Source of the DNA: an uncultured Gammaproteobacteria bacterium
GTDB taxonomy: Bacteria; Patescibacteriota; Microgenomatia; Levybacterales; UBA12049
Assembly (NCBI GenBank): GCA_964483115.1
Contig: CAYZZF010000003.1
Location: 2,772 to 66,771, forward strand
DNA length: 64,000 bases
Reading direction: 5' to 3'
Part shown: positions 5,040 to 63,901 of the stretch, piece after piece
Numbering within the stretch: the first letter of the stretch is position 1
How the letters are laid out: each line of letters opens with the position of its first letter
Program-made: the position numbers and the translations under genes
Notes under the pieces: model-generated
What the model was told of the DNA's origin: nothing
Seen by the model: the letters and a program-made list of their open reading frames with translations, nothing else
Databases searched by the model: none

Positions 5040-5255
5040 ATGGCAAAACAAGATTATCCACTTTCAAAAAATCTCAAGAAGCTAAGAGAAAAGAAAGGGC
5101 TTTCGCAAGATCGGCTCGCGAAGCTCGCCGATATCGCCAACAATACGATTATTAAAATTGAACAAGGTGAAAACATGAACCCTCGACTTGATACACTAAA
5201 AAAGATTGCGAAAGCCCTTGAGGTCAAGGTCGATGATTTGATAAATGACAGTTGA
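5040..5255 (+). CDS. XRE-family (Cro/CI-type) HTH transcriptional regulator
   Basis: LKKLREKKGLSQDRLAKLADIANNTIIKIEQGENMNPRLDTLKKIAKAL is a canonical XRE HTH. Confidence 0.7.
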   Translation: MAKQDYPLSKNLKKLREKKGLSQDRLAKLADIANNTIIKIEQGENMNPRLDTLKKIAKALEVKVDDLINDS

Positions 5256-5321
5256 TATTATGAAAAGTTTCGGGGGGTAAACTATAAGTAAGGTCGCGTT
5301 ATAATTAATTTTTTAAAATCT

Positions 5322-9730: not shown

Positions 9731-10768
9731 ATGGAAGAAGAGTTAATCCAAATTAAGAATGCGGCAGTATCGTTAATTTTGGAAGCAAAAAATCAAGAAG
9801 AACTCGAAGAAATAAAGCTTCAGTTTCTGGGAAGAAGTGGAAAGCTGACACTTGCCATAAAAGAAATCCCTAAATTACCTATTGAGAAAAGGCCTGAAAT
9901 TGGAAAACTTGCAAATGAAGTTAAGAACACAATTGAGGAAACTTTAGAAAATCAAAAATCGAAAATCAAAAATCAAAAATTAGAAGCTGCAAAGATTGAG
10001 ATTGACAGGACAGAACCTGGGATAGAACCTGAAATAGGACACATTCATCCAATGTCCCAAGTCATTTATGAAGTTGTGGATATATTTAAAACTTTGGGAT
10101 TTCAAGCAGCAGACGGGCCCGAGATAGAAACTGATTACTACAATTTTGAAGTTTTAAATATCCCCAAGGATCACCCCGCACGAGATATCCAACAGACATT
10201 GTACTTAGACACAAGAAACAGTAAGGAAACGCCCGGAGAAATATTGCTTCGAACTCAGACGTCCAACATGCAAGCAAGAATCATGGAAAAAATTAAACCT
10301 CCATTTAGAGTTATAGTCCCAGGGAAGGTATTTAGATACGAGCAGGTAGATGTTTCTCACGGATTTGAGTTTCAACAATTTGAAGGATTCGCAGTTGATG
10401 AAAATATCAGATTAACAGATTTATTTGGAACTATCGAATATTTCTTTAAGAAATTCTTTGGTGAAAAAACTAAAGTCCGCTTTGTATGCCATAACTTTCC
10501 TTTTGTAGAGCCCGGGGCTGAAGCCTATATTAACTGTAATGCTTGTGGGGGAAAAGGCTGCGTCTTCTGTAAAAATTCCAGTTGGGTAGAGATATTAGGA
10601 GCAGGAATGATACATCCTAATGTTTTAAAAAGTGTTAATATTGATCCAAATAAATATCAAGGCTTTGCCTTTGGAGTTGGTTTGTCAAGACTTGCAACTT
10701 TAAAATATCAAATGGATGATTTACGGCTTCTGACAAACCCCGACTTAAGAATATTAAATCAGTTTTAA
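9731..10768 (+). CDS. pheS: Phenylalanyl-tRNA synthetase alpha subunit
   Basis: ILLRTQTSNMQAR, FRYEQVDVSHGFEFQQFEGFAVD, and class II motif 3. Confidence 0.85.
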   Translation: MEEELIQIKNAAVSLILEAKNQEELEEIKLQFLGRSGKLTLAIKEIPKLPIEKRPEIGKLANEVKNTIEETLENQKSKIKNQKLEAAKIEIDRTEPGIEPEIGHIHPMSQVIYEVVDIFKTLGFQAADGPEIETDYYNFEVLNIPKDHPARDIQQTLYLDTRNSKETPGEILLRTQTSNMQARIMEKIKPPFRVIVPGKVFRYEQVDVSHGFEFQQFEGFAVDENIRLTDLFGTIEYFFKKFFGEKTKVRFVCHNFPFVEPGAEAYINCNACGGKGCVFCKNSSWVEILGAGMIHPNVLKSVNIDPNKYQGFAFGVGLSRLATLKYQMDDLRLLTNPDLRILNQF

Positions 10769-16567: not shown

Positions 16568-18640
16568 ATGAATCTTAAAACTCCTATCCGTTTGGCAGGA
16601 AATATATTCACAAGATATGCAAACCGTCTTGAAAAACTTGGTATTAAAACCATAGATGATTTTCTCTATTATTTTCCATTTCGTTATGAAGATTATTCCG
16701 TCATTTCGAAAATCAGTCAGGTGCAAAGCGGGGAAGTGGTAACGATCCAGGGAGTCGTAGTTGATATTAAAAATGAATACACCAAAAAATGGAAAAAAAT
16801 TCAGAAAGCAAAGATTGCAGATGAAACAGGAGTAATCGACGTTATATGGTTTAATCAGCCATTTATTTTAAATATAATAAGAAAGAATGATAATGTATCT
16901 CTGTCTGGAAAAATAGGTTTGCATTTAAGTAAATTTGTTCTTGAATCTCCTGATTATGAAGTTATAAATGAACAGACACAAACAATCCATACTGGAAGAT
17001 TAATCCCAATCTATAGAGAAACCAACGGTATTTCGTCTAAATGGTTACGTCGCCAAATATATAAAATCATTAGGGAAAATAAACAAAATATACTCGAATA
17101 TCTTCCTGACTCAATTAAAAAAGATAATGATTTAATGATGTTAAGTGACGCAATTGAACAAATTCACTTTCCAAAATCATTAGAAGATGCTAAAAAAGCA
17201 AGATATCGACTAGCTTTCGATGAATTATTTATTCTCCAACTAACAGCGGCGAAAAGAAGATTTGAATGGAAGAAAAGCCTTACAACCCACCCCTTTTCTA
17301 TAGCAAGCTACAAAAAAAATATTGAGGATTTTTGGAAAAAGCTTCCCTTTGAACTAACAAATGCTCAAGAAAAGGCAGTTTCTGAAATTTTTAAAGATTT
17401 AGGCACAGAGAATCCAATGAACAGACTTTTGGAAGGAGACGTAGGAAGTGGAAAAACAGTCGTTGCAAGCATTGCTATGTATCTAGCTTTCTTAAATGGT
17501 TTCCAATCGGTTCTTATGGCACCAACTGAGATTCTTGCTCAGCAACATTTTAATACTATTTCGAATCTTTTATCTCCATTTAAAGTCAAAGTCAGCCTAA
17601 AAACAGGAAGTATTAAACATAAAGTATCAAGTATAAAGACCGAAAGTAAAAAAATACTCAATACTCAATACTCAATACTCAATACTAACATTTTAGTTGG
17701 GACTCATGCTGTACTTTCTGAAAAGATCAATTTTGAACGTTTGGGACTTGTTGTAATTGATGAACAACAGCGTTTTGGCGTAGAGCAACGGGCAATAATA
17801 AGAGAGAAAGGGGGAAATCCGCACTTTCTTACAATGACTGCAACTCCAATTCCCAGAACCGTTGCTTTAATTTTGTATGGAGACCTTGATCTTTCTTTTT
17901 TGGATGAAATGCCAAAAGGCAGAAAAAAAATTAAAACATGGCTTGTCCCTTCGGAAAAAAGAGATAGTGCCTATCGATGGCTCAAGTCTCAAATTTCAAC
18001 TTTCAAATCTCAGGCTTTTATCATTTGTCCTTTTATTGAAGAATCAGAAAGCATAACTACTGTTAAAGCCGCAACAAAAGAATACGAAAGACTAAAAAAG
18101 GAAATTTTTCCAAATCTCAAACTTGCTCTTCTTCATGGAAAGCTGAAGACCAAAGAGAAAGATTTAATATTGGAAGGTTTCAAAAATAGAAAAACTGACA
18201 TACTTGTCTCAACGCCTGTGGTTGAGGTAGGAATAGATATTCCTAACGCAACAATTATGATGATCGAGGCAGCAGAGCGTTTTGGACTTGCCCAGCTCCA
18301 TCAACTGCGAGGAAGGGTTGGTAGAAGAGAAAAACAATCATATTGTCTATTATTTACAGAGTCACAGCGTGAGAAAACAATTGAAAGGCTTAAAGCGATG
18401 GAAACAATGAGTATAGGCGTAGAACTTGCAGAACTTGATTTAAAACTTCGAGGACCAGGAGAAATATATGGCACAGCCCAACACGGGATTCCAATGCTTA
18501 AAATCGCATCATTTTCAGATATTGCTCTTATAGAAAAGACAAAAAGAGAAGCAAAAAAAATATTTTCAAACATTAAAAGCTATCCAAAACTTTTGGAAAA
18601 AATAGAAAAATCCACAACAAAACAAGTCTCCCCAGATTGA
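16568..18640 (+). CDS. recG: ATP-dependent DNA helicase RecG
   Basis: Wedge/OB domain. Helicase motifs GDVGSGKT and DEQQRFGV. C-terminal ...LHGKLKTKEKD...QLHQLRGRVGR. Confidence 0.85.
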   Translation: MNLKTPIRLAGNIFTRYANRLEKLGIKTIDDFLYYFPFRYEDYSVISKISQVQSGEVVTIQGVVVDIKNEYTKKWKKIQKAKIADETGVIDVIWFNQPFILNIIRKNDNVSLSGKIGLHLSKFVLESPDYEVINEQTQTIHTGRLIPIYRETNGISSKWLRRQIYKIIRENKQNILEYLPDSIKKDNDLMMLSDAIEQIHFPKSLEDAKKARYRLAFDELFILQLTAAKRRFEWKKSLTTHPFSIASYKKNIEDFWKKLPFELTNAQEKAVSEIFKDLGTENPMNRLLEGDVGSGKTVVASIAMYLAFLNGFQSVLMAPTEILAQQHFNTISNLLSPFKVKVSLKTGSIKHKVSSIKTESKKILNTQYSILNTNILVGTHAVLSEKINFERLGLVVIDEQQRFGVEQRAIIREKGGNPHFLTMTATPIPRTVALILYGDLDLSFLDEMPKGRKKIKTWLVPSEKRDSAYRWLKSQISTFKSQAFIICPFIEESESITTVKAATKEYERLKKEIFPNLKLALLHGKLKTKEKDLILEGFKNRKTDILVSTPVVEVGIDIPNATIMMIEAAERFGLAQLHQLRGRVGRREKQSYCLLFTESQREKTIERLKAMETMSIGVELAELDLKLRGPGEIYGTAQHGIPMLKIASFSDIALIEKTKREAKKIFSNIKSYPKLLEKIEKSTTKQVSPD

Positions 18641-24572: not shown

Positions 24573-26078
24573 TTAAAAATTTCTCATAGTCACTGACGTT
24601 TGAAATGGGATAGATGCTTTTTTCTCGAAAAAATTACTTGAGGTCTTACTAGAAAGAGTAAAATTTATCCCAATTATTGGAGGGGAAACAATATTATCTT
24701 GAGAACAAGTAAAAAAACAGGAATCAACAGAAACAGAATTATTAGTATCTACGAGATTGGCTCCGTTTGATGCAATTTGGCCATTGGGAGAACGCTGAGA
24801 AGAATCTAAGCAGGAAAAGATTGTAGTTCCTCTGTCAAAAGAAGTTATTTTTACATAATTGTATTGAATTAGAGGCGGGGTTGGAGTAGGGGATGGAGCT
24901 GGAGTAGGAGATGGGGTTGGACCAGGCGTAAAAGTAGCGGTTGGTGTGGGTGTGGGGGCCGCAGGGTTTATTGAAACTCCTCCAATTGCCCAATAGCGAG
25001 AGAATGAAAATGTCCATGACATTGTTACAGAATCTGCTCCAGGTTTTGTACTAGAGGCTCCTAATTCAACGCTACTGGCTACCGTGTTCCATAATTGAGT
25101 TTGACCAGAACCAACAGTAGGAGAACTAGAACTGTAAGCTGCAAGATTATCCTCAACTACTGCTCCTGTTTTACTTACAACATTAACAGAGGGATTTTTA
25201 CTATAACCAGAGGCAGTTGTATAGTTACTAAGAGGGGCTGTTTGATCAACTCCTGACCAGCTTGTAGCTCCTCCCACAGGATAGACGTAAGTTGAAAAGT
25301 TTACTTTAATTGTAGCGGTGCCGCTTGTGGGATTAATAAGATACCACATTTCTGATTGGTCTTGATTGATATCCTTTATCCCACCTATTCTTGTAAGAGA
25401 TGCTGTTCCATAAGTTATACTAGTTATGGAAGTGGAACTTCCATAAAAGGAGACACTAACCAAGAGAAGCCTATTGCTGTTCGAACCTACTGTATGGTTC
25501 CAGCTAAGAGATTTTGCATATGAACCAGCCGTATAAGATTTTGCATCAAGAGTTGGAGAAGCAGCTGCAACAGCTTCTTTTATTGGCGATTTTTCAAACT
25601 TAGGAATTAAGTCTTCTAACTTTGAAAATAAACTTGACGTTTTTTCTTTGCCTAGGCTGACAAATCCCTGAATAAACTCAGCAATTTTCGAAAAAAAACT
25701 TTCTTTTTTGCGAATGATAATAGGTGAATAAGAAAGAGGATAACTGCAATCTGCAGTGTAGTTAACTCCGTCAGTGCTTACTCCGTCAAAGTTTTGGGCA
25801 TATTGTATCATCTTTCCCATTTGTGAAATCGCACTATTACCATTTCTTCTAACAATATCTATAGTATTTGTTTTACTTGTTCCACGAAGAGAGGAAACTA
25901 AAATAGCTGAGACAACCGCACCTACAGTAAGGATGACAAACATCACAACCAAAAGCTCGATTAAGGTGAATCCTGCTCGCCGCCGGCTCGAGTTTAAAGT
26001 TAAAAGTTTAAAGTTAAAAGTTAATAAAGAAGGGGGACTAAAATTTTTAATTTTGGATTTTAATTTTGAGTTTTGCAT
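24573..26078 (-). CDS. Large type IV pilin-like protein (501 aa) with a Pro/Thr-rich tract
   Basis: Prepilin cleavage/methylation motif RRRAG|FTLIELLVVM. PAAPTPTPTATFTPGPTPSPTPAPSPTPTPP linker. The leader peptide is encoded by AT-rich heptamer repeats. Confidence 0.6.
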   Translation of the reverse strand: MQNSKLKSKIKNFSPPSLLTFNFKLLTLNSSRRRAGFTLIELLVVMFVILTVGAVVSAILVSSLRGTSKTNTIDIVRRNGNSAISQMGKMIQYAQNFDGVSTDGVNYTADCSYPLSYSPIIIRKKESFFSKIAEFIQGFVSLGKEKTSSLFSKLEDLIPKFEKSPIKEAVAAASPTLDAKSYTAGSYAKSLSWNHTVGSNSNRLLLVSVSFYGSSTSITSITYGTASLTRIGGIKDINQDQSEMWYLINPTSGTATIKVNFSTYVYPVGGATSWSGVDQTAPLSNYTTASGYSKNPSVNVVSKTGAVVEDNLAAYSSSSPTVGSGQTQLWNTVASSVELGASSTKPGADSVTMSWTFSFSRYWAIGGVSINPAAPTPTPTATFTPGPTPSPTPAPSPTPTPPLIQYNYVKITSFDRGTTIFSCLDSSQRSPNGQIASNGANLVDTNNSVSVDSCFFTCSQDNIVSPPIIGINFTLSSKTSSNFFEKKASIPFQTSVTMRNF

Positions 26079-26093
26079 TTTAAATTTTGAATT

Positions 26094-26573
26094 TTATGGC
26101 GCTGTCACACTTGAATTATTGTTAACACAAGAAACAATTTTTATCTGGTGACAAAATGGATTTGAAACGCTTGTGCATTTGGTGTCTGACCAAGACACCA
26201 ATGCTGTTATTAATGCCCCAGTACTTGAACAGTCCATAGATTTTTGTGAAATATCAATTTCTCTTACGAAAAGATTATCAATATTTGTACCGCAGCTAAT
26301 TCCTTTCTGAGTAAGGTCTCTATTTTTATCAAGACAATAATAAGTATTATCGTAGGTTGAAAAATCTGCCCAATTAGATTGAGCAAGTTTTCTAATTATC
26401 TCTATTCCTTCCTGAGCGTATTGTGTAGCCACGTTTTGATTCTTGCTAAATTGGACATTGGTGAGAGATGACATGACAATAATTACTATTGCAGCAATTA
26501 TAACTGTGGCTGTCCCCAATGCTATCAAAACCTCAATCAATGTCTGTCCAATTTGTGAGCTGTTCTTTTTCAT
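26094..26573 (-). CDS. Type IV pilin/pseudopilin
   Basis: G|QTLIEVLIALGTATVIIAAI is a class III signal peptide. Confidence 0.6.
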   Translation of the reverse strand: MKKNSSQIGQTLIEVLIALGTATVIIAAIVIIVMSSLTNVQFSKNQNVATQYAQEGIEIIRKLAQSNWADFSTYDNTYYCLDKNRDLTQKGISCGTNIDNLFVREIDISQKSMDCSSTGALITALVSWSDTKCTSVSNPFCHQIKIVSCVNNNSSVTAP

Positions 26574-27064
26574 CGAATATTCCCTGATGGATCAACTGTT
26601 ATATTGCTTGTATAACCATACCCTGTTACGCTAATTGTAATACCTGAAGATGGAGAAACTCCACCGGTAATAACATTAAAAAAAATAGTCGTTGGTAGTT
26701 GTATTGGATTAGTTATGCTAACATTTGGAGGAAGATTTACGGTTGAAGCTGGATATTTACCTATTGAGGAAACAGCATCTAGTTCATAACTGGTAGATGA
26801 TAATATAACTACTTGATATCCATTAAGCACGCAGGTGGGTACAGACGCGCACTGACTTGGTTTAACTTGATTTGAAGCACGGGATTTTGCAAGACTTAAC
26901 ATAGTTGCTAAATTATTTGCAGCAGAATTAACAGTTTGTAAACGATTGTAATTTACAAATGAGGCAATTCCGACAATTGATAAAATCGCAATAACAGAAA
27001 TGACAACGATCAGTTCGATAAAAGTAAATCCTTCTGAAGACTTTTTATGGATTAGTAAGAACAT
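26570..27064 (-). CDS. Type IV pilin-like protein
   Basis: EG|FTFIELIVVISVIAIL. The listed ORF was shortened to an internal Met to limit overlap with the upstream pilin. Confidence 0.5.
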   Translation of the reverse strand: MFLLIHKKSSEGFTFIELIVVISVIAILSIVGIASFVNYNRLQTVNSAANNLATMLSLAKSRASNQVKPSQCASVPTCVLNGYQVVILSSTSYELDAVSSIGKYPASTVNLPPNVSITNPIQLPTTIFFNVITGGVSPSSGITISVTGYGYTSNITVDPSGNIR

Positions 27065-27527
27065 AATAATAGTTACTATTGCATCCTGTTCCGCTTCCGT
27101 CCGGAGACGTAGTTGTGCCTTGAGAATCATTGGTGTTTTCAAGACACGCGCCTAGAATATAAGTTATGCCATCATTGCTTGAGTAATAGTACATACCGCT
27201 ATTATAATAAGAACTTCCGTTGGGATCACAAGGAATTTTTTGCATATAAGTGGTGGGTGGACTTCCGGCAGTCATAGCAGATCCACAGGCAGGTAGCGAT
27301 GATGGATAGCTTCCCTCATCCGCTCTGTAAAATTCCAGTGCTGACTGTATCTGACGAAGGTCAGACTTTCTTTGACTATCTCTTGCTCTCTGCCGAACGC
27401 CAATAAAATTTACAAAAAGAATACTCGCCAAAACTCCGATAATTGCAATAACAACCAAAAGCTCAATTAGAGTGAATCCTCCGTTGAGATTTGAGATTTG
27501 AGATTTGAGATTTGAGATTTTCTTCAT
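27045..27527 (-). CDS. Type IV pilin
   Basis: GG|FTLIELLVVIAIIGVLA, then RARDSQRKSDLRQIQSALEFY. The leader carries (TGAGATT)x4 heptamer repeats. Confidence 0.7.
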   Translation of the reverse strand: MKKISNLKSQISNLNGGFTLIELLVVIAIIGVLASILFVNFIGVRQRARDSQRKSDLRQIQSALEFYRADEGSYPSSLPACGSAMTAGSPPTTYMQKIPCDPNGSSYYNSGMYYYSSNDGITYILGACLENTNDSQGTTTSPDGSGTGCNSNYYYVLTNP

Positions 27528-28138
27528 GGTGTTACATTTGAACTTGTTGCTCCATAATTACAAATATAACTCGAGGAGGATCCACAGTAAACACCGACTG
27601 GAACATTAGTACATTGTGCTCCTTGATTGCACGCCTGAGGATCTTGTGCGCCTCGCTCTAAAGATGTATAAAGATAGTATGATTGCGCTCCTGTTGTAGG
27701 AGAGGAGTAATACACGTAATTTTGTGAAGAAAGTGGATCATTGGGAACAGAATTTATGTATGGACTAAAATTAGTGGTAGAAAGAGTTGATCCCCAAACT
27801 ACACAATTTCCATCCAACCTTTTTATTCTAAAATCAGTAGCTGTACACTGAGGAGGATAATACCCAAAATCGTTGTAGTATGTCTCTAATGCCCTTTGAA
27901 TTTGCGCCAGATCTGATTTTCGCTGAGCATCTCTTGCTTTCATCAATTGCCCCACTGGGTTTATAATTGTAAACAAAAAGACTGCCATAATCCCCAGTAT
28001 CGCTATTACCAATAACAGCTCAACTAGGGTAAAACCATAAAAATTATTTTTTCTGAAAGAAAGTAGCTTAAAAAGGTTCCAAGAGCCAAAAATGGGCCGA
28101 AAGGAATTGTTGCGATTTTTAACCTCTTTTTCTTCCAC
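27524..28138 (-). CDS. Type IV pilin
   Basis: YG|FTLVELLLVIAILGIMA, then ARDAQRKSDLAQIQRALETYY. Long leader. Overlaps the 3' end of pilD, so the true start may be internal or non-ATG. Confidence 0.6.
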   Translation of the reverse strand: MEEKEVKNRNNSFRPIFGSWNLFKLLSFRKNNFYGFTLVELLLVIAILGIMAVFLFTIINPVGQLMKARDAQRKSDLAQIQRALETYYNDFGYYPPQCTATDFRIKRLDGNCVVWGSTLSTTNFSPYINSVPNDPLSSQNYVYYSSPTTGAQSYYLYTSLERGAQDPQACNQGAQCTNVPVGVYCGSSSSYICNYGATSSNVTP

Positions 28139-36829: not shown

Positions 36830-37569
36830 ACAAAACGGCAAATGGCAAACGGCAAATGACAAATGACAAACTGAAAGTTTTTATTCTACACGGTTGGGCT
36901 TACTCAAAAGAAAAATGGAACCCTTTCCTATCTCTTTTAAAGTCGGGGGGCTTAAACCCCTATTTGCTTTCAATTCCAGGACTTACAGAAAAAAACGATA
37001 AAGTTTGGAATATAGATAATTATGTCAAGTGGCTTTATAAAATTTTAGAAAAAGAGAAAGGGAAGATTGTTCTTTTAGGACACTCAAATGGAGGGAGAAT
37101 AGCTCTTGCCTTTACGATAAAATATCCCCAAAAACTATCAAAACTAATTCTAATTGATAGCGCCGGAGTTTATCACAATGATTTACCTATAAAAATAAAA
37201 CGCGGCATATTTAAAATAACGGCTAAAGTTGGCAAGAAAATCTTTCCTCTTGAGCAGGCAAGAAATTTATTGTATGCAATAGCACGAGAAAATGACTACA
37301 AAAATGCTGACCCAATCATGAAAAGGACTATGATTAATCTTATTAACTCTGATAAGAGTCTTACTATTGATAAAATAAAAGTCTCTACTATTATAATATG
37401 GGGAGAAATAGATAAAATAATTCCTGTGTCTGATGCAAAAATATTAAACCAAAAAATAGTCAATAGTAAATTATATATAATTAATAACTCCAGACATTCA
37501 CCTCAATTTACTCATTCAGAAGAGGTGGCAGACATAATAATTCAGCAATTAAATCGTGCAGTAATTTAG
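36817..37569 (+). CDS. Alpha/beta-fold hydrolase
   Basis: Nucleophile elbow GHSNGG. The N-terminus (MNKTANGKRQMTNDK) is encoded by GGCAAAT/GACAAAT heptamer repeats. Confidence 0.55.
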   Translation: MGIMNKTANGKRQMTNDKLKVFILHGWAYSKEKWNPFLSLLKSGGLNPYLLSIPGLTEKNDKVWNIDNYVKWLYKILEKEKGKIVLLGHSNGGRIALAFTIKYPQKLSKLILIDSAGVYHNDLPIKIKRGIFKITAKVGKKIFPLEQARNLLYAIARENDYKNADPIMKRTMINLINSDKSLTIDKIKVSTIIIWGEIDKIIPVSDAKILNQKIVNSKLYIINNSRHSPQFTHSEEVADIIIQQLNRAVI

Positions 37570-37574
37570 TAAAT

Positions 37575-38774
37575 TTGTATATGAGCATTTTTAATTCCTT
37601 GGGATCAAACTACGATTTAAGTTTTGCATTTAAAGCATTATTTGCATCTGGCAAAAATAACCTTAAAAAATTTCTAGAAAATAAATATAACGGGCAAGTG
37701 ATTATGTTGTTTAAGGCAAGACAGGCAATTACTCTTTCTTTAAAAATCTTAAATCTTCCCAAAGCTTCAAGTGTCGCCATAAATGGATTTACCTGTTATG
37801 TGGTTTATCGGGGAATTGAGGAGGCAGGTCTTAAGCCTTTGTTGATCGATATTCCAAAAGATAACTTTAATTTTACGGCAAAAAAACTAAAAAAAGCATT
37901 AGAAGGAAATCCTAATATCAAAGCAGTAATAATTCAAAATACATTGGGTTATCCATGCGAAATTGAAGAAATTTCTGCTATTCTAAAAGCCAAAAATATT
38001 CCCCTTATTGAAGATCTTGCACATAGCACCGGAACAATTTATAAAAATGGCAAAGAAGCCGGAACAGTCGGGGACATGACAATTTTGTCTTTCAGTCAGG
38101 ATAAAATTGTTGATGCAGTCTCGGGCGGAGCTTTAATCATAAGAAACAAAAAATACCAAAAGGTTAAAATTGACTATTTTCAAAACTCGCCATTTAGAAA
38201 GATAGTGACTGACAGATTTTATCCGATATTTACTCTTATAATAAGGGGGGCTTATGAAATCGGACTTGGCAAATTTATTCATTTTGTATTGAAAAACATA
38301 GGGCTTTTGTCTACCCCGATGGTTGATAATTTATACAAAATGACAATGCTTCCAGAGCGGTATAGAAATCTCGCCGCATATGCTTTTAAAAATCTTAAAG
38401 AAGATTTGAAGCACAGAAAAAAAATCGCCAAAGTTTATGTAAAAAATTTAGATAAAAATTTATTGATAGGTCCAATAGTAAAGGACATTGATTTATCAAC
38501 AAACCTTCGCTTTCCTGTTCTTGTTGAAAACAGAAAAAAACTTATAAATTACTTAAAAAAATACGATATTTATATTTCCGATGTCTGGTATGATGCTCCA
38601 ATTGCGCCGCGAAGGTTTTTCAACAAAATGAATTTAAATTCTATTTGTCCTAATTCAGAGAAATTATCATCTCTTATTTTAAATCTTCCTACTCATAAAA
38701 ATATATCAGAAAAAGACGCAAATATTATTTCAAAAAGGATAAATACATGGCTAAAAACTAGAATTATGAATTAA
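37575..38774 (+). CDS. DegT/DnrJ/EryC1/StrS-family PLP-dependent aminotransferase (probable)
   Basis: Fold-type I layout with a candidate PLP-Lys in SFSQDKIVD. Sits in a cell-wall context next to a FemAB gene. Confidence 0.4.
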   Translation: MYMSIFNSLGSNYDLSFAFKALFASGKNNLKKFLENKYNGQVIMLFKARQAITLSLKILNLPKASSVAINGFTCYVVYRGIEEAGLKPLLIDIPKDNFNFTAKKLKKALEGNPNIKAVIIQNTLGYPCEIEEISAILKAKNIPLIEDLAHSTGTIYKNGKEAGTVGDMTILSFSQDKIVDAVSGGALIIRNKKYQKVKIDYFQNSPFRKIVTDRFYPIFTLIIRGAYEIGLGKFIHFVLKNIGLLSTPMVDNLYKMTMLPERYRNLAAYAFKNLKEDLKHRKKIAKVYVKNLDKNLLIGPIVKDIDLSTNLRFPVLVENRKKLINYLKKYDIYISDVWYDAPIAPRRFFNKMNLNSICPNSEKLSSLILNLPTHKNISEKDANIISKRINTWLKTRIMN

Positions 38775-38839
38775 GAATTAGAAATCAAGAACTAAGCGGA
38801 ACTACAATTATGATTAATACCTCAATAATTCTTTAAATT

Positions 38840-42892: not shown

Positions 42893-43408
42893 ATGACTAT
42901 TAAAAATCTAAAAGTTGGTAAAAATCCGCCGGAGGAAATAAATGTTTTTATAGAAATACCGCAGGGTGTTTCGGTTAAATATGAACTTGATAAAAATTCA
43001 GGCGTTATTTTTGTGGACAGATTTCTTTATACCGAAATGGAATATCCTTTTAATTACGGGTTTATTCCAAATACTTTGTATGACGATGGAGATCCGGTTG
43101 ATGTTCTTGTGCTTGCGAGCAAACCCGTCGCGCCCGGCGTGGTTATTCCATCCCATCCAATAGGAATGCTTGAGATGGAAGATGAAGCAGGAACTGATAA
43201 CAAAATAATCGCAGTGCCGCTTGCAAAGGTTGATCCGAAATTTAAAGATTATAACGATATCTCAGATATCCCAGAAAAAACAAAAAATGAAATTAAATAT
43301 TTTTTTGAGAATTACAAAAAAACCGAGCCGGGTAAGTGGGTAAGACTTAAAGACTGGAAAGGGAAAAAAGAAGCATTAGAAGAGATCAGACGGTCAATTA
43401 AACCCTGA
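42893..43408 (+). CDS. ppa: Inorganic pyrophosphatase (family I)
   Basis: [10 protein letters not shown] and the EIPQG...YELDK signature. Confidence 0.85.
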
Positions 43409-43534
43409 CTCCAAAATTACAAATTCCAAATAAATTACATTTTCTAAATTCTAATTTCTAAAATTTTGAGTTTTGGTTATTTGAATTTAGATATTATTTG
43501 AAATTTGGTGCTTTGAATTTGGAATTTTTTATTT
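43409..43534. repeat. AT-rich imperfect palindromic element of the heptamer-repeat family (copy 1)
   Basis: Left arm AAATTCCAAATAAATTACATTTTCTAAATTCTAA. Right arm TTTGAAATTTGGTGCTTTGAATTTGGAATTT, with near-copies at 57331-57362 (reverse complement) and 63343-63378. Confidence 0.55.
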
Positions 43535-46066
43535 ATGGTTGACATTGGTAAAGTAAATAAAGCTGAGATAACCAGAGAGATGAAGAAGGCGTATCTTGAT
43601 TACGCGATGTCGGTTATCGTAGCTCGCGCTCTCCCTGATGTCCGCGATGGATTAAAACCAGTACACCGAAGGATCCTTTATGCAATGCACGAGATGGGGC
43701 TACAACACAGTGCAAAATATGCAAAATCAGCAAAAATTGTTGGAGAGGTTATGGGAAAATACCACCCTCATGGAGATATGCCTATTTATGATGCATTAGT
43801 CCGTCTTGCACAGGATTTTTCCATGAGATATCCATTGGTTGACGGACAAGGAAATTTTGGCTCGATGGACGGAGACCCACCGGCTGCAATGAGATACACA
43901 GAAGCACGCTTGGCTTCGATAACAGCAGAGATGCTTTATGATCTTGATAAAGAAACCGTTGACTATCTTGATAATTTTGACGCAACTCTTAAAGAACCTG
44001 TCTTTCTGCCAGCAAAACTTCCAAACCTTCTCCTTATGGGTTCTGAAGGAATCGCGGTTGGAATGGCAACTAAAATTCCACCCCATAATCTAGGAGAAGT
44101 TATAGACGCAATTATCTTCATAATTGATAAAACAAAAGTATCACCAGGAGAAAAGGCGCCAAATGGAGAGACTAAAACAAAAACTTACGATACGTTTGAT
44201 ACTTCCAATACTTTTTCTACTTTTACCAATAACGTTACTATTGATGAACTTTTGGAATTTATAAAAGGTCCTGATTTCCCAACAGGAGGAGCTATTTATG
44301 ATATGAGCGAGATAAAGAACGTATACGCAACCGGCAAGGGGCGCATATTAATTCGCGGTAAGGCAGAAATTGAAGATATAGGACAGGGAAAATCCGCAAT
44401 TATAGTTACAGAATTGCCTTATCAGATAAATAAAGCCCTGCTCGTTGCACGAATTGCAGATCTTGCAAAAGAAAAAAAGATAGAAGGAATTTCCGATCTT
44501 AGAGATGAATCAGACAGACATGGCATTCGAGTAGTTATTGAACTTAAAAGGGATGCGGCTCCCAGAAAAGTCTTAAATAATTTATACAAACATACCGGTC
44601 TTCAGACTGTTTTTCCGGCAAACATAGTAGCCCTTATCGATGGGACACCACAAACTCTTAATCTTAAAACGATTCTTGAGGAGTATTTGAAACATAGATT
44701 CCTAGTTATAAATAGGAGATCGGAGTTTGAGTTAAGACAGGCAAAAGCAAGGCTACATATTTTGGAAGGTCTGAGAATTGCAGTAGATAATATTGACACT
44801 GTAATTGAAACCATCAAAAAATCCCGCGATCAGGAAGATGCCAAAAACAACTTAATTACCAGATTTAAACTAACAGAAATTCAGGCAACCGCAATTTTGG
44901 ATATGCAACTTAGAAGATTGGCGGCACTTGAGCGGCAAAAAATTGAGGATGAATACATAATGGTTAGAGAAGATATTGCCTATCTAGAAGATCTTCTTGC
45001 AAATCCTAAAAAAATTCTTATAGTGATTAAGGACGAAATTTTAAAAGTAAAAGAAAGGTATGCTGACCCAAGACGAACCAAGGTGTTTAAAAGCAAAGTC
45101 GGAGAATTTTCAGACGAAGATCTTATCCCCAATGAACCAACTGTTATAACTTTGACAGAGACAGGCTATATAAAAAGGCAAAGTCTTGCCTCATTTAAGA
45201 CTCAACAGAGAGGAGGAAAAGGCGTAAAAGGAATGACTACAAAAGAGGAGGATAGCATTGTTTCTATCCGTTACGCAGAAGCTCATGACAACATTTTGTT
45301 CTTTACAAATCGAGGAAAAGTTTACCAGCTTAAAGCTTATGACATAAACGAATCGACAAGAACAAGTAAGGGCACTGCAATTGTTAATCTTTTAAATATA
45401 GAACAGGAAGAAAAAGTAGAGTCATTTATAAATTATGGAAAAACCGATAAAGGAGAGTATATATTTTTAACGACCAGAAAAGGTACTGTCAAAAAATCTA
45501 AAATTTCTGAATTTGAAAATATTAGAAGAAATGGAATTGTTGCAATCAAGCTTGATAAAGGAGACGAGCTGGCTTGGAGCAAGCTTACTAATGGACAAAA
45601 TGATATTATTCTTGCGACAAGAAATGGAAAGGCGATTAGATTTTCCGAAAAAAGTGTCCGGCCCACAGGCAGAGCTACAATGGGGGTGCGTGGAATAAAA
45701 CTTGACGGCGATGATATGGTTATTGGCATGGACATTATTGACAAAAGAGATACAGAAACGGATCTTCTGACAATTATGGAGAGTGGTCTTGGCAAAAAAA
45801 CAGCTTGCAAACTCTTTAGAGGGCAATCAAGGGGAGGAAAAGGTGTAAAAGTAGCAAAAGTCACTGCGAAAACTGGAAAAGTAGTTCTGGCCCAAGTAAT
45901 TCCTGCAAGTTCTAAGGAAATTATAATAACATCCAAAAGGGGACAGGTGGTAAAACTTGAAATTTCGTCAATCCCCAGACTTTCCCGTAACACTCAGGGG
46001 GTAATCTTAATGCGCTTCTCAAATCTAAGTGATTGCGTAGCCTCTGCAACTTTTGTCGAGAAATAA
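43535..46066 (+). CDS. gyrA: DNA gyrase subunit A
   Basis: Active-site region [10 protein letters not shown]. GyrA-box and beta-pinwheel C-terminal domain. Has an insertion near residue 200. Confidence 0.9.
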
Positions 46067-52327: not shown

Positions 52328-53068
52328 AGTAGGGGATTGAGTAAAATAAAAATTAAAAGAGAAAATATAAAAAAGAGAATAGATAATTTAGAATAATAAA
52401 ATAAAAATATTTTATTTTTTATATTTTATTTTATATTTTAAGTACTTCTCCGAGAAGTCCTACCTGAGTGGTGTCGTAAAAGTATTATTGTACGACATAA
52501 TCATTCACGCTTCCCGTGCTCTAGGATATCAGAAATTTTTCCTAAAGCATACTTGGGGAGAAATAGGATAAAGAAATCTATCAAGAGGTTAATTCTTTAC
52601 TTTCCTCTATAAAAATTGTAATTAAATTTAACTTAATAAATCTAATAATTCTTTCTCTTTTCCGCGACTGTCAACTAGTATTCAATTTAGATTGAAAAAG
52701 CAATCTAAATGTTAATTTTTAGCCTCAGAAATTATAAAAAAATTATGTAAGAAATCTTACAAAGAGAAACGTTAGGAGGAGCCCGTTCGTATTTTGTTAT
52801 AAGTTTTTTATCCTTCTGATATGGGATTGATATATAATAGATATGGCAAAACGGGAAAGTCTGTGAAAATTGAGCCAATAAATTGTGAAAATTAAATATA
52901 AGTTCATAAAGTTATAAAAGTTATCCACATCCGCCAGCTTGACTAATATCCTATAATATTTTTTAATTAGTATATCAAACTATATCACTTGTTCGTCTCT
53001 AAAATTATTTGAATATCCCATGACAATTACACTCTCCCCTTTCCCCTTTTCCGTCTTATCTATTTTTT

Positions 53069-56762: not shown

Positions 56763-57548
56763 TTAATATTTCAACCTTAAAAGAAAATCACTAAGGTCTT
56801 TTGGGAGAGAAGATTTGATCTGTAAAGTTTTATTATTAACTGGATGGACAAAAGAGATTTCTGAGGCGTGGAGGAAAAGACGGGACAAAAGTTTTCTGTC
56901 CTTCCTTGCGACTTTTCGACCCGCATAAAGATTATCTGCAAAAACAGGATGGCCAAAATATTTAAGATGTACTCTTATCTGATGAGTTCTTCCCGTCTGC
57001 GGATATAGTTCGATCAAACTCAAAGCCTCTTTTTCCTCTCCTGATACATAATATTTAATATTTAATATTTTATACATTGTCGTCGCTTCTCTACCACCTG
57101 CAACAATCCCAAATCTCTTTCTATTCCAAGGTGTTCTTCCAACCGGCACATCTATTTCTCCTTTAGAAGGCGTAACTTTTCCATGAACCAAAGCGATATA
57201 AGTCTTTTTAACCTTCCTCTCTTTGAATTGTTTTTGAAGATTCAAAAAACAATCGAGGGTTTTGCCAATAAGAAGAACTCCCGAAGTCTCCTTATCAAGT
57301 CTATGAACAATCCCAGCCCTGCTGGTAAATTCTAAATCTAAAGCACCAAATTCCAATTTTTTTTTATCATTTGAATTTTGTAATTTATTTGTGATTTGTG
57401 ATTTGTGATTTGTGATTTCAAGATACTCTTCTACCCAGTCCTGTACTGTTTCCTCCTCTTTCGTGGTTTCCGAACGATTTACCGTAACCCCAGACGGTTT
57501 ATCTATAACCAAAAGGCATTCGTCCTCATATATTATTTTCATATCCAT
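56763..57548 (-). CDS. RluA-family pseudouridine synthase (RluD-like, no S4 domain) with an in-frame repeat-derived insertion
   Basis: Catalytic GIVHRLDKETSGVLL and HQIRVHL. A 30-aa insertion (EITNHKSQITNKLQNSNDKKKLEFGALDLEF) is encoded by the heptamer-repeat element at 57331-57418. Confidence 0.7.
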   Translation of the reverse strand: MDMKIIYEDECLLVIDKPSGVTVNRSETTKEEETVQDWVEEYLEITNHKSQITNKLQNSNDKKKLEFGALDLEFTSRAGIVHRLDKETSGVLLIGKTLDCFLNLQKQFKERKVKKTYIALVHGKVTPSKGEIDVPVGRTPWNRKRFGIVAGGREATTMYKILNIKYYVSGEEKEALSLIELYPQTGRTHQIRVHLKYFGHPVFADNLYAGRKVARKDRKLLSRLFLHASEISFVHPVNNKTLQIKSSLPKDLSDFLLRLKY

Positions 57549-60100: not shown

Positions 60101-60213
60101 AATTTAAAAATTAAAACTCAAAGCTCAAAATGAAAAACTACAACGCCAATCGTAAATCTTTTAAAAATTTGTGAAGTTTTGAGATTCAAAGATGTAAATT
60201 TGACATTTGAGAT
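60101..60213. repeat. AT-rich heptamer-repeat palindromic element (copy 2)
   Basis: AAAACTCAAAGCTCAAAATGAAAAACT ... TTTTGAGATTCAAAGATGTAAATTTGACATTTGAGATTTAAGTTTTCAGATTC. Arms are related by reverse complement. Confidence 0.45.
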
Positions 60214-61562: not shown

Positions 61563-61778
61563 CTAGACGCCGATTTTGGCTGCAATTGTAGCCAATTTTT
61601 CCTCAATTCGCTCTAGAGCTGCTAAAATCTGCTCATGAGGTGGTCCCTCTGGCCCTCCTCCCATTAGCCCGCCTGTTGGTGGGGGCGGTGGGGGCGGCAT
61701 ACCTCCCATAGAAGGTGGGACGTCTCCTCCTGGCATCGTCGGCTCTCCTGGTTGATTTTGATTTAGCGGATCATCCAT
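61563..61778 (-). CDS. Small Pro/Gly-rich protein (71 aa) with an amphipathic C-terminus
   Basis: Strong SD AAAGGGGGTGA 8 nt upstream of the ATG. MDDPLNQNQPGEPTMPGGDVPPSMGGMPPPPPPPTGGLMGGGPEGPP...ILAALERIEEKLATIAAKIGV. Locally GC-rich. Confidence 0.4.
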   Translation of the reverse strand: MDDPLNQNQPGEPTMPGGDVPPSMGGMPPPPPPPTGGLMGGGPEGPPHEQILAALERIEEKLATIAAKIGV

Positions 61779-61794
61779 TACTTATCACCCCCTT

Positions 61795-61935
61795 TAAAAA
61801 ATTCCAAATTAAAAATTTTAAATCCTAAATAAATTACATTTCTCAAAATATTAAAATATAAACCGTTTTGGATTTAGGTTTTGTGATTTTGATATTGTTT
61901 AGAATTTATAAATTAGTGCTTAGAATTTTATCTTG
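61795..61935. repeat. AT-rich heptamer-repeat palindromic element (copy 3)
   Basis: AAAAATTCCAAATTAAAAATTTTAAATCCTAAATAAATTACATTTCTCAAAAT ... GTTTTGGATTTAGGTTTTGTGATTTTGATATT. Confidence 0.5.
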
Positions 61936-63255
61936 TTATTCTTCGTGTTTTTTCTCTATATTATAAAATCTTATCCTATCTCCTCTGAAAAGTAAATCTA
62001 TTTCGCCAGTTGGTCCGTTTCTATGCTTGGCAATCAAAAGCTTTGTCGGTATTACATTACCAACTGCCTCTTCTGTTCTATATAAAAACATCACCACATC
62101 CGCATCCTGCTCTATTGCGCCACTTTCTCTAAGGTCTGCAAGTTGAGGTTTTTTCTCTCCTCTATGCTCGACCGCACGTGAGAGTTGAGAAACCGCAAGA
62201 ACAGGAATTTTAAGTTCTCTTGCCAAATTCTTAAGAGATTGCGAAATAACTGAAACTTCCTGGACTCTATTGTCATAATGTCTTCCCGGATCAACAAGCT
62301 GAAGATAATCAACAATAAGAAGCGCAATATTATGTTCAAGCTGAAGCCTTCGGGCTCTTGTTCTTATTTCTGAAACTGATGCTCCCGGTGTATCATCTAT
62401 AAAAATTGCCGCATCTGCCAAAAGCCCCATTGCCTCTGATAATTTTGGGAAATCTGATTCCGAAAGTCTGCCTGTTTTAAGTCTCCATGCATCCACATCC
62501 GCCTGACCTATCAAAAGCCTGTCAACCATTTCTTCTTGACTCATCTCTAAAGAGAATATTCCAACTGGCAATTTTTCTGAGACAGCGATAAACTGAGCTA
62601 TGTTTGCAACCATTGCTGTTTTACCCTGTCCAGGACGCGCTGCAAGTATAAGTAAATTTGAAGCCTGCATTCCAGACAAAGTGTTATCAACATCAACAAA
62701 TCCAGTCTTAATTCCTCTAAAACCTGCTCCTCTTTTATGCAACTCATCTATTCTATCAAAGCTTTCAGCCAACATCTCCTTAAGAGCAATAAATCCTCTT
62801 ATTCCATGCCCTTTGGATATAGAAAATATAGATGATTCAGCCTTGTCCAATAATTCATCTGCAGACTTCTCTTCTGTAAAACCCATTTCTGCAATTTGCC
62901 CACCTGCTGTGATAAGCGCCCTTTTTGTAGAGTCCTCTTTAATAATTTTTGTGTAATATTCTACGTTTGCTGCCGTTGGAACAGCATTTACAAGATCTGA
63001 TATATAAACAGGATCAACTGCATCTTTCTTCTTTTTCTTTTTAAGCTCTGAGGTTAAGGTTAAAATGTCAATAGGCTTTTGCTCCTCAAATAAAGAAAGC
63101 ATGACAGAATAAATAATTCCATTTACGTTGTTGTAGAAATCAGAAGATTTGATAATTTCAGAAACAATGCTTATCGCACTATTGTCGATAAGAATTGCTC
63201 CTAATATGCTCTGTTCTGCTTCTTCATTGTGAGGAGGGACTTTTACATTTGCCAT
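61936..63255 (-). CDS. dnaB: Replicative DNA helicase DnaB
   Basis: N-terminal PPHNEEAEQSILGAIL. Walker A ARPGQGKTA. RecA-like C-terminal domain. Confidence 0.9.
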   Translation of the reverse strand: MANVKVPPHNEEAEQSILGAILIDNSAISIVSEIIKSSDFYNNVNGIIYSVMLSLFEEQKPIDILTLTSELKKKKKKDAVDPVYISDLVNAVPTAANVEYYTKIIKEDSTKRALITAGGQIAEMGFTEEKSADELLDKAESSIFSISKGHGIRGFIALKEMLAESFDRIDELHKRGAGFRGIKTGFVDVDNTLSGMQASNLLILAARPGQGKTAMVANIAQFIAVSEKLPVGIFSLEMSQEEMVDRLLIGQADVDAWRLKTGRLSESDFPKLSEAMGLLADAAIFIDDTPGASVSEIRTRARRLQLEHNIALLIVDYLQLVDPGRHYDNRVQEVSVISQSLKNLARELKIPVLAVSQLSRAVEHRGEKKPQLADLRESGAIEQDADVVMFLYRTEEAVGNVIPTKLLIAKHRNGPTGEIDLLFRGDRIRFYNIEKKHEE

Positions 63256-63382
63256 AACTTATAAAAATTCCAAATTCCAAATAAATTTAAATGTTCAAAA
63301 TTCTAAATTCGAAATTGCTCCTGTATTTTGGTAATTCGAATTTTGATATTATTTTGGAATTTGATGCTTTGGATTTTGAATT
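63256..63382. repeat. AT-rich heptamer-repeat palindromic element (copy 4)
   Basis: AAATTCCAAATTCCAAATAAATTTAAATGTTCAAAATTCTAAATTCGAAATT ... TTTGGAATTTGATGCTTTGGATTTTGAATTTT. Confidence 0.55.
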
Positions 63383-63901
63383 TTAACCCAGCACGACAAC
63401 TTCCATTTCTTCTGGTAATTTTTCTGAGACAGAGAATTTTTGAAGAGACGTGATTTCTTTTCCAAATTCTTTTGCCAACACCGATGCCATTTCCCCATAC
63501 AAAATAACTACACTAGACTCAAATGAACTAATAATAGATTGATCAATCTCTAAGTCTGAATTTAAAATAAGTATCTTATAAGCTTTTCCATTCTGGGTTT
63601 TGCCTAGTGCGCTTAAATTTCCTAGAAGAACTCCTATGCTGCCAATATCCAGACTATATATAAGTTTATCTGCCAAGGCCTGAGTCGTAATTCTAATGCC
63701 CCCTATTTCGTATTCCCCAGGCCCCTCTATTAAAACCCGAAAGCCTTCGACTTTTGATGCATCAATATCTCCATTGCTTTTAAGAGACAAAATTCCGTCT
63801 GCATTTGTTTTTTTCATTTGCCCTGTTGGGTCAACCACAAGACTTGCGTTTTTAGCCTTAATTTTAATTGAATTTTTTAAAAGAAGCGTTACGTCCATCA
63901 A
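63383..63901 (-). CDS. Hypothetical protein (not L9, despite sitting in the usual rplI position upstream of dnaB)
   Basis: 172-aa ORF with no L9 signature and no recognisable motifs. Confidence 0.3.
   Translation of the reverse strand: MMDVTLLLKNSIKIKAKNASLVVDPTGQMKKTNADGILSLKSNGDIDASKVEGFRVLIEGPGEYEIGGIRITTQALADKLIYSLDIGSIGVLLGNLSALGKTQNGKAYKILILNSDLEIDQSIISSFESSVVILYGEMASVLAKEFGKEITSLQKFSVSEKLPEEMEVVVLG

Follow-up and report, generated by a model that had tools for sequence, protein, structure and literature searches.

A heptamer-built palindromic element in gene spacers of a Patescibacteria genome and its relatives in other phyla and in 23S rRNA genes

Introduction

Intervening sequences (IVSs) of bacterial 23S rRNA genes are extended stem-loops that replace the tetraloop of helices 9, 25 and 45 and are excised by RNase III; their origin has been regarded as unknown since 1990, and they are suspected to be mobile (PMC4990558). 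The heptanucleotide repeats, such as the cyanobacterial STRR (short tandemly repeated repetitive) sequences, (GGGAATC)n of Xanthomonas and (GGGGAYT)n of Nostoc, are intergenic, variable in length, sometimes arranged as inverted pairs and obscure in function, and slippage has been proposed as the cause of the over-representation of heptamer repeats in bacteria (PMC4692102). [quoted passage not shown] In this study we describe a family of AT-rich imperfect palindromes which crosses phyla. It was recognised in a stretch of 64,000 nucleotides of contig CAYZZF010000003.1 (positions 2,772 to 66,771, in the following called the window), taken from a Patescibacteria genome of the Levybacterales. The window has ~35% GC, its genes are dense and its spacers short; three spacers hold full copies of the element (A, B and C), and a protein gene holds a shortened one (F). 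On balance we favour the reading that these four copies represent a dispersed insertion element, non-coding and shaped as an imperfect palindrome, which forms hairpins, is selfish at the DNA level and is comparable to IVSs, ERIC sequences and MITEs.

An ordered palindrome of heptamers

A preliminary description of the window had assigned five blocks to one architecture. This holds for A, B and C, which are homologous in plus orientation: compared with dinucleotide shuffles, their local alignments reach z values of 24 (A-C), 11 (A-B) and 8 (B-C) in this orientation only, and an nhmmer profile of the three recovers each copy at E values of 1e-28 to 1e-31. By the profile of the whole family, A extends over 43391-43540 with 93 bits, and B and C score 64.7 and 83.6 bits. 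The possibility that the three share only low-complexity AT sequence is contradicted by these alignments and by two cores, both of which recur above expectation at sites 2-10 nt away from where they had been placed: the right-arm core TGRTGCTTTRRATTTNGAATTT is found three times in the window (0.00 expected) and the left core CAAATAAATTACA likewise three times (0.35 expected). A reverse complement of a core, noted near 57331, proved to belong to a true fourth copy, F, which is detected at an E value of 4e-6 and with the family profile at 4e-11. Altogether, five family copies are present in ~72 kb of the genome to which the window belongs.

The two remaining blocks, D and E, do not belong to this family. 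Block D aligns with A, B and C at z values of about 1 and folds no better than shuffles, and block E shows weak similarity only (z 3-5) and a fold z of +0.4. The arms of A, B and C are approximate reverse complements of each other, as had been described, with G-free left and nearly C-free right arms; in block E, which lies upstream of and adjoins a pilin-like gene, both halves are C-free and arranged as direct, not inverted, arrays. Block E belongs to a general class of heptamer repeats. The neighbours were named correctly, with ppa and gyrA flanking A, dnaB between B and C, and pilin-like genes beside E.

The heptamer periodicity was borne out as well. Seven is the sole short period with strong self-similarity, with six self-similar segments in the window as against 0-1 at lags of 4-15, and with Tandem Repeats Finder a 7-nt phase was seen in both halves of each of A, B and C. 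Since period 7 dominates across the window with many different units, the heptamer habit is a general one, and A, B and C form one ordered family within it. Copies A and C fold better than all 200 of their shuffles, both as RNA (z -3.8 and -3.6) and as DNA (z -4.0 and -2.9); copy B out-folds its shuffles on the minus strand only (z -3.85).

A full copy consists of two inverted arrays of ~8 diverged heptamers each, of the form AAATNNN in the one array and NNNATTT in the opposite one, and the iterated profile gives the consensus AAATTCCAAATTCAAAATTCCAAATTCCAAATAAATTCAAATTTCCAAATTCCAAAATTCAAAAC-TG-TTTTGGATTTTGGTATTTTGAATTTTGAATTTGTTTGGAATTTGGTGCTTTGAATTTGGAATTT. From the outer end to the apex, a unit AAGCACC/GGTGCTT is followed by a 4-nt phase spacer (CAAAYAA/TTRTTTG), a unit of the type AATGNYC/GGTCATT and the apex AAAAC/GTTTT. 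This order of GCAC unit, CAAAYAA spacer, AATGNYC unit and AAAAC apex is kept in the arms, with counts of 28/29, 10/10, 9/9 and 13/13. A, B and C are thus phased by seven, but they are not simple arrays of a single heptanucleotide, as their units are diverged and ordered and the phase is shifted by the 4-nt spacer; true arrays of one unit are present elsewhere in the window. We counted 85 arm pairs with facing inner ends and a gap below 60 nt, ~30 solo arms and almost no other arrangements. As the arms are nearly always paired in this way, the palindrome is to be seen as the unit. The solo arms have no consistent placement or orientation, and their interpretation as modules of 5′ untranslated regions was rejected because of the inconsistent orientation.

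Several copies are combined with other structures. Small GC-rich hairpins (e.g. CTCCGCCAAAGGCGGA, CACTGGGATCCCTGTACCAGGGA) are nested within the heptamer arms at three loci (L083, L013 and L072). In a planctomycete contig of 62% GC (L016, 5874-6110), the element tips a GC-rich outer stem (AATCCGAAGCCGC ... GCGGCTTCGGATT), and both form a composite palindrome of ~215 nt between convergent genes. A position at the tip of a larger host palindrome is clear in this case, in L077, in AUK048 and in a MITE of genome CAZLZN01, which is described below, but it is not general and was rejected as a rule; the nesting reaches p = 0.05 in the GC-rich subset and 0.68 otherwise. A variant architecture was seen in a cultured flavobacterium, Salinimicrobium sp. 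TH3 (L033, 5750-6030), where left-arm-type units AAATTCCAAGCACCAAATTCC are followed by an array with a period of 14 nt, (GGTTAATTGGGGAT)n, the whole arrangement being present twice in tandem.

Copies inside 23S rRNA genes and protein genes

Five family copies lie within 23S rRNA genes. Four of them replace terminal loops, namely those of what we take to be helices 9, 25 and 63, named by us from positions in the large subunit (LSU) rRNA model. In a metagenome-assembled genome (MAG) of Thermodesulfovibrio (L077), the flanks of the copy are 23S rRNA (LSU model, 1350 bits), and 147 nt replace a 6-nt terminal loop at model position ~1762 (helix 63). A contig of Candidatus Moranbacteria (L082, 1983-5704) carries a complete 23S gene of 3722 nt with three full copies: 150 nt replace a 4-nt loop at position ~143 (helix 9), ~142 nt lie in the terminal loop at ~583 (helix 25), and the third copy has the same flanks as the Thermodesulfovibrio site (helix 63). 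The fifth copy is part of a ~500-nt insertion in the 23S gene of a gammaproteobacterial MAG at model position 2526/2527. In four of the five copies the fold in rRNA sense is the more stable one, as exemplified by L077 with -73.3 kcal/mol in rRNA sense vs -49.9 kcal/mol in antisense and 14 vs 2 G-U pairs. The helix-9 and helix-25 copies of L082 have in common a GC-rich adaptor stem with G-U pairs. The same 23S gene also holds a group I intron at 5209-5406.

Within the window, copy F is part of a protein gene. It is translated as EITNHKSQITNKLQNSNDKKKLEFGALDLEF in the variable linker ahead of the RAGIVHRLD motif of an RluA-family pseudouridine synthase, where the linker measures 47 residues compared with 20 in solved homologues, and it contributes ~27-30 extra residues relative to these. 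The hairpin potential of this copy has been lost. An identical RluA protein and its near relatives are listed by their sources under Candidatus Levybacteria. Among the orthologues from Levybacteria the segment is variable (IPNPKSQIPNKSQIQN...LELGALDLEF), and other orthologues have longer unrelated inserts or a short heptamer-encoded form, FNFQFSI. A second case was found in a Gottesmanbacteria contig (L045), where a solo arm lies in frame in a gene for a LigT/ThpR phosphoesterase. In one RluA orthologue (P0019) the translated copy is interrupted by an insert, LPRRQAG. Together with the GC-rich hairpins nested in the arms, this insert suggests a second, smaller class of nested inserts.

Near-perfect heptamer arrays are also translated in frame elsewhere in the window (9944-9989, 17642-17696 and 27476-27528): (AAAATCA)n in the linker between two PheS domains, (AATACTC)n within RecG, and (GAGATTT)n, which encodes a prepilin leader peptide in a minus-strand gene (27045..27527). 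Two further arrays (36833-36870 and 38760-38796) are located at gene ends.

Distribution across bacteria

The right-arm pattern TGRTGCTTTRRATTTNGAATTT, a core of 22 nt, was scanned over one genome per species. Among the matches listed, more than 117 contigs were hit, compared with ~2-20 expected from a composition-based estimate; about 10 of the genome matches are chance matches in coding sequence and the rest carry the whole architecture. The range obtained in this way is a lower bound, skewed toward copies retaining one exact core, and the taxonomy of the contigs was taken from record titles. Hosts belong to many classes of Patescibacteria, to Planctomycetota (Pirellulales, Phycisphaerae and Brocadiaceae), to Bacteroidota including the cultured Aequorivita and Salinimicrobium, to Desulfobacterales, Thermodesulfovibrio, Aminicenantes, Binatia and Armatimonadota, and comprise several Gammaproteobacteria MAGs as well as one contig labelled Halobacteria. 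Several of the genomes have many copies apiece. When 2.9 million viral contigs were scanned with this pattern, four matches appeared, all of them by chance in coding sequence, and no match was obtained by BLAST in plasmid and phage collections, where the low-complexity filter could mask matches.

A profile built from the window copies alone, with the search pattern masked, still finds the element in Planctomycetota (E 2.6e-9), Binatia (1.4e-10), Aminicenantes (5e-7) and Aequorivita (1.7e-6), so that the similarity is not a product of the pattern used for searching. GC contents are 61-65% at the planctomycete loci and 70% at the locus labelled Halobacteria, yet the elements there are AT-rich and sharp-edged, the block in the 70% GC contig beginning with TAAATCCTAAA and finishing with TTTAGGATTTA. 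Mis-binning of Patescibacteria contigs therefore cannot account for the spread. One locus labelled 'Lysobacteraceae', at 28% GC, is probably mis-binned.

These data also bear on the question whether the blocks arose where they stand, by slippage of heptamer microsatellites, and resemble each other merely through low complexity. Such convergent local growth would agree with the over-represented period 7 in the window, which involves many units and extends into open reading frames (ORFs), with the varying number and type of units among copies, with the general heptamer character of blocks D and E, and with the heptamer excess of bacteria, which has been ascribed to slippage (PMC4692102). However, local slippage cannot make AT-rich copies in contigs of 61-70% GC and in conserved rRNA loops, the landmark order is fixed, A and C align at z = 24, the significance survives masking, and near-identical copies are found within single genomes. 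For A, B, C and F we regard local growth as improbable and largely refuted.

Gain, loss and replacement at orthologous sites

A metagenome scan based on DnaB yielded 69 related loci, and the relatives compared here have DnaB proteins that are 81-89% identical. Identical DnaB-bearing contigs were found in two groundwater-type sequencing runs. Upstream of dnaB, the element fills the spacer in the window, in L120 and in L130; L126 has a 50-nt relic comprising the two outer ends only, as after an internal deletion, and nine relatives of similar DnaB identity have an empty site with an unrelated spacer of ~27 nt. Downstream of dnaB, the window, L162 and L167 carry the element; in four relatives the spacer is missing altogether, and five have other palindromes. 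The latter (L120, L129, L130, L175 and L124) are unrelated to the family; in one, AATGGTC/AATGGTA heptamers follow a gggacgaaaattttc...gaaaattttgtccc hairpin, and the palindrome of L124 is built from CTAGTTG/CTAATCG heptamers. The NIF3-efp spacer holds a D-type palindrome in the window and in L165 and a copy of the A/B/C type in L167, L178 and L128, and D-type units (TTGTAGT, TTTGAGC) make the outer layers of larger palindromes in another genome, AUK048. As D-type units occur elsewhere and either type can occupy the same spacer, there are several families of heptamer palindromes which replace each other.

Convergent spacers are avoided. On the basis of crude longest-ORF gene calls, 54 of 340 tandem and 15 of 84 divergent spacers are occupied, whereas only 2 of 71 convergent spacers are (Fisher p = 0.0035 and 0.0019). 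Between tandem genes, the median distance is 2 nt from the upstream stop codon to the beginning of the element and 13.5 nt from its end to the following start.

A host element kept by selection, be it a cis-acting element of operons or a protein-binding array, is the main rival to a selfish element. As a cis-acting element it would bind a conserved factor or structure the polycistronic mRNA, and an RNase III/E processing site, an exonuclease barrier and a fold joining the stop codon to the next start have been considered as its role. The tight tandem placement and the avoidance of convergent spacers agree with it, as do the ordered arm sequence, conserved across phyla including genomes of 61-70% GC, and the preference of rRNA-embedded copies for the rRNA-sense fold. 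Roles in processing and mRNA structuring are known for ERIC and REP sequences in enterobacteria and are comparable. However, the element is dispensable, since in close relatives the corresponding sites show an unrelated palindrome, a 27-nt spacer empty of the element, or no spacer; its arms show no compensatory change and its intergenic copies no bias of sense or orientation (see below); and an operon role is inapplicable to copies in divergent spacers, ORFs and rRNA. A cis-acting operon element is accordingly a possible explanation, although we hold it to be a doubtful one.

RNA structure and regulatory signals

It had been suggested that the blocks might be a family of structured small RNA (sRNA) genes. 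RNAalifold, applied to 50 diverse copies, found no consensus structure (-1.03 kcal/mol, 11 pairs) and no compensatory change between the arms; the sole two-sided change is a T/A vs C/G difference at the spacer, which is linked to a subfamily. Arm complementarity amounts to 77.5% within an element vs 77.4% between elements, and native hairpins are just 1-3 kcal/mol better than chimeric ones (p = 0.13 in the AT-rich subset). As read from the sequences, the identity pattern of the arms looks like a signature of neutral decay. In 50 tandem contexts the sense strand was the more stable one in 23 cases and the antisense strand in 27, and polar elements are oriented with the genes in 16 and against them in 13 cases. 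Searches of Rfam with the window and 17 loci at the gathering threshold, and permissively with copy A, returned only tRNAs and sub-threshold noise, and scans of A, B and C for promoters and terminators gave nothing above shuffled expectation.

A family of sRNA genes or riboswitch-like leaders with their own promoter would find support in the long hairpins of A and C (z of about -3.7) and in the copies located upstream of genes. The missing consensus structure and covariation, the indifference to strand and orientation, and the negative results for promoter or terminator consensus and Rfam stand against it, together with the fact that copies fill co-directional spacers and are translated in ORFs. 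This reading is already contradicted, and we give it very little credence.

Other signals were considered and dropped. One subfamily has an extended -10 motif, TGATATTAT, which points away from the downstream gene in B and C, and for this reason a promoter role was abandoned. Resemblances to boxA, CIRCE, the CodY box and sigma-54 promoters, and pairing with the anti-Shine-Dalgarno sequence, were considered by eye and discarded, given that the orientation of the element relative to transcription is not fixed. Five loci of relatives (L165, L167, L133, L124 and L130) have a canonical sigma-70 promoter (TTGACC and TATATT, spaced by 17 nt) immediately beyond the heptamer arrays, downstream of a tRNA-like 3′ end and upstream of a NIF3-family gene; these genomes thus possess ordinary promoters separate from the arrays.

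The conserved element might also be an array of binding sites in duplex DNA, arranged as an inverted repeat and recognised by a conserved protein such as gyrase, a nucleoid protein or a replication factor. Both arms of an element conform to the family consensus without covarying with each other, A-tracts recur at a regular phase of 7 bp, the conservation is independent of genome GC, and the length of ~130 bp is near that of gyrase-binding repeats such as the bacterial interspersed mosaic elements (BIMEs). On the other hand, no binding protein was identified, copies are dispensable among relatives, solo arms lack a consistent placement, and copies in rRNA loops and ORFs would be unexpected for an organiser of the chromosome. 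We consider such an array improbable.

Mobility and the favoured explanation

The description of the blocks as mobile and MITE-like stands in so far as the element is dispersed, is gained, lost and replaced at orthologous spacers, and has entered 23S loops. Like a MITE it is multi-copy with presence and absence among relatives, and it is bounded by terminal inverted repeats in the sense that the entire element consists of two inverted arms. The formal marks of a MITE did not follow: in 80 copies no target-site duplication was found, the longest shared flank word averaging 4.24 nt vs 4.15 nt for mismatched flanks, where fuzzy boundaries could hide a very short duplication (TA). The element can itself reside in a true MITE. 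In a Gammaproteobacteria MAG (CAZLZN01; L022, L032, L064, L090, L093 and L112) a conventional MITE of ~280 bp with 16-bp terminal inverted repeats (GTAAsTGCTCACTGG), present in at least six copies at 97-99% identity, carries the heptamer palindrome centrally.

According to the explanation we favour, the element would be copied into new sites in either orientation and survive wherever the extruded hairpin is harmless. Such sites would be the short gaps that separate genes of the same direction, spanned from one stop codon to the following start as in the window, surface linkers in proteins if the length of the insert preserves the frame, terminal loops of 23S helices, in which the element would amount to an IVS, and the middles of other palindromic repeats. 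Slippage in 7-nt steps would then alter the number and identity of the units. By analogy with rRNA IVSs, a transcribed copy may fold as a long imperfect hairpin and be cut by RNase III, which in operons could amount to a processing site or to plain tolerance; the more stable rRNA-sense fold in four of the five rRNA-embedded copies agrees with such cutting. Spread might depend on an enzyme acting in trans or on recombination between copies. That recombination between copies and slippage contribute at least as much as transposition is suggested by the mosaic make-up of the outer units, by the exchange of elements between constant gene ends and by length changes in heptamer steps.

Several observations weigh against a selfish insertion element. 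Besides the negative search for target-site duplications, an all-against-all BLAST of 1211 flanking ORFs revealed no recurrent family that could represent a linked gene or transposase, and no arm pair brackets a gene, as an autonomous form would, in ~1.3 Mb of loci. Copies that are otherwise nearly identical vary in how many outer heptamers they have and of which type, and such variable ends fit recombination and slippage better than cut-and-paste transposition. A neutral hairpin should tolerate convergent spacers, so their avoidance (2 of 71) counts against it too. Finally, an ordered arm which is kept from 28% to 70% GC exceeds what purely selfish neutral decay would leave, which may reflect frequent transfer or a conserved partner. 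A less likely, tentative idea is that of a previously undescribed, cross-phylum class of repeats from whose dispersed copies at least some 23S IVSs would derive and which would owe its conservation to a conserved cellular machine or a hairpin-specific mobilising enzyme, not to mere selfish drift.

Features of the window

The coordinates of copies, blocks and neighbouring genes are collected in Table 1.

Table 1. Copies of the element, other heptamer blocks and associated genes in the 64-kb window
Feature	Position	Strand	Description
Copy A	43409..43534	+	Full element; occupies the whole ppa-gyrA spacer (stop codon to ATG); G-free left arm 43409-43467, right arm 43468-43534, apex AAAATTTT at ~43460-43467; landmarks CAAATAA 43427-43433, GATATTATTT 43490-43499, GGTGCTT 43507-43513
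Copy B	61795..61935	+	Full element, more diverged; between dnaB stop (61936) and Shine-Dalgarno/ATG of small ORF 61563..61778; landmarks TAAATAA 61826-61832, GATATTGTTT 61891-61900, AGTGCTT 61915-61921
Copy C	63256..63382	+	Full element; fills the spacer from the stop of ORF 63383..63901 to dnaB ATG (63255); landmarks CAAATAA 63278-63284, GATATTATTT 63345-63354, GATGCTT 63363-63369
Copy F	57326..57423	-	Shortened: (AAATCAC)4, CAAATAA, A-run, GGAATTTGGTGCTTTAGATTTAGAATTT; in frame within RluA-family ORF
Block D	60101..60213		Heptamer palindrome of a different unit family (AAAACTC/AAAGCTC ... GAGCTTT/GAGTTTT); NIF3-efp spacer
Block E with left neighbour	25990..26095		Direct arrays (AGTTAAA)n 25991-26024 and (AATTTTG)n 26042-26095
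Inorganic pyrophosphatase gene (ppa)	42893..43408	+	Stop codon abuts copy A
gyrA	43535..46066	+	ATG directly after copy A; without Shine-Dalgarno sequence of the GGAGG type
dnaB	61936..63255	-	Starts next to copy C and stops next to copy B
RluA-family pseudouridine synthase gene	56763..57548	-	261 aa, Pfam PF00849; contains copy F

The small minus-strand ORF next to copy B (61563-61778) encodes 71 amino acids rich in Pro and Gly, is preceded by a long Shine-Dalgarno sequence, GGGGGTGAT, and is kept directly after dnaB in relatives; it has no match in Pfam. A non-coding stretch of 741 bp at 52328-53068, with 27% GC, a C-free run of 119 nt and overlapping A/T palindromes, lies beside a turning point of the cumulative GC skew and a switch from plus- to minus-strand genes (~47-53 kb). 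This stretch may be the region of a replication terminus or origin.

Comparison with known repeat systems

In the literature, covered without most subscription journals, no description of this family was found by sequence strings or keywords. Two aspects appear to be new, namely the combination of an ordered, heptamer-built palindrome with a cross-phylum range, and the occurrence of one and the same element as filler in operon spacers, as insert in proteins and as IVS in rRNA. This provides a testable link between dispersed genomic repeats and rRNA IVSs. As some hosts, Aequorivita and Salinimicrobium, can be cultivated, it also makes it practicable to study how a non-coding sequence of 130 bp spreads, or is constrained, across phyla. 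In practical terms, such elements bring about broken assemblies, extended ORF calls and low-complexity segments in proteins of candidate phyla.

REPs favour gene 3′ ends and convergent spacers, and the latter are avoided by the family described here. The replicating unit of REPs is reportedly an inverted doublet (REPIN), an intergenic hairpin of ~100 nt, with singlets that resemble decayed remnants. The family corresponds well to REPINs and BIMEs in this respect, being intergenic, with the inverted doublet as the hairpin-forming unit and a smaller number of solo remnants. REP units themselves are different: they are GC-rich palindromes of 20-40 nt with a GTAG/CGTC head and a linked REP-associated tyrosine transposase (RAYT), whereas the arms here are AT-rich 7-mer arrays without internal palindromes or such a head, and no RAYT lies near any copy examined, nor did a recurrent gene appear in loci of up to 8-12 kb or in the 64-kb window.

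RPEs are inserted in frame in protein genes and translated as extra surface segments. The copies in the RluA and LigT genes behave in a similar way, an analogy without any relation in sequence, and RPEs are confined to Rickettsia-type genomes and are not heptameric. With ERIC sequences, also called intergenic repeat units (IRUs), the family shares an imperfect palindrome of similar length (~127 bp in ERIC), a location in transcribed spacers in either orientation, the lack of a known transposase, a presence that differs among relatives, and shorter forms with internal deletions (review: PMC10969869). Unlike this family, ERIC sequences lack heptamer periodicity and are confined to Enterobacteriaceae and Vibrionaceae, and there is no sequence relation. 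The Correia/NEMIS-type MITEs are likewise small, non-coding, bounded by inverted repeats, multi-copy, polymorphic in insertion and often near gene starts. In contrast, the family here has no target-site duplication, fixed termini or parent insertion sequence in the loci examined, and it is recognisable across phyla, where MITEs mostly keep to one genus (PMC11602168).

The heptanucleotide repeats of the STRR, GGGAATC and GGGGAYT types have in common with the element the 7-nt unit, the intergenic location and the variable length, but they are lineage-specific, near-perfect tandem arrays of a single unit, as opposed to diverged, ordered units forming one palindrome in many phyla. The GGTCATT landmark unit is a rotation of the STRR2 unit, TTGGTCA, and an STRR was reportedly found inside an RNase P RNA gene (Vioque 1997). 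The repeats of Xanthomonas are under-represented between divergent genes (PMC4692102), whereas the element is not (15 of 84).

The resemblance to 23S IVSs concerns the length of 100-150 nt, the AT-richness relative to the host, the extended imperfect stem-loop in place of helix 9 and 25 loops, the sporadic distribution suggesting transfer, and the obscure origin and function (PMC4990558). A stem-loop in place of a 23S helix loop is what the L077 and L082 copies represent; the copies of the window are not located in rRNA. Classical IVSs have been described from rRNA genes only and are lineage-specific, whereas the family is mainly found in spacers and ORFs, is heptameric, extends over many phyla and also uses helix 63. 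The element thus shares behaviour with IVSs, ERIC sequences, REPINs, MITEs, RPEs and heptanucleotide repeats, and by sequence it is a member of none of them.

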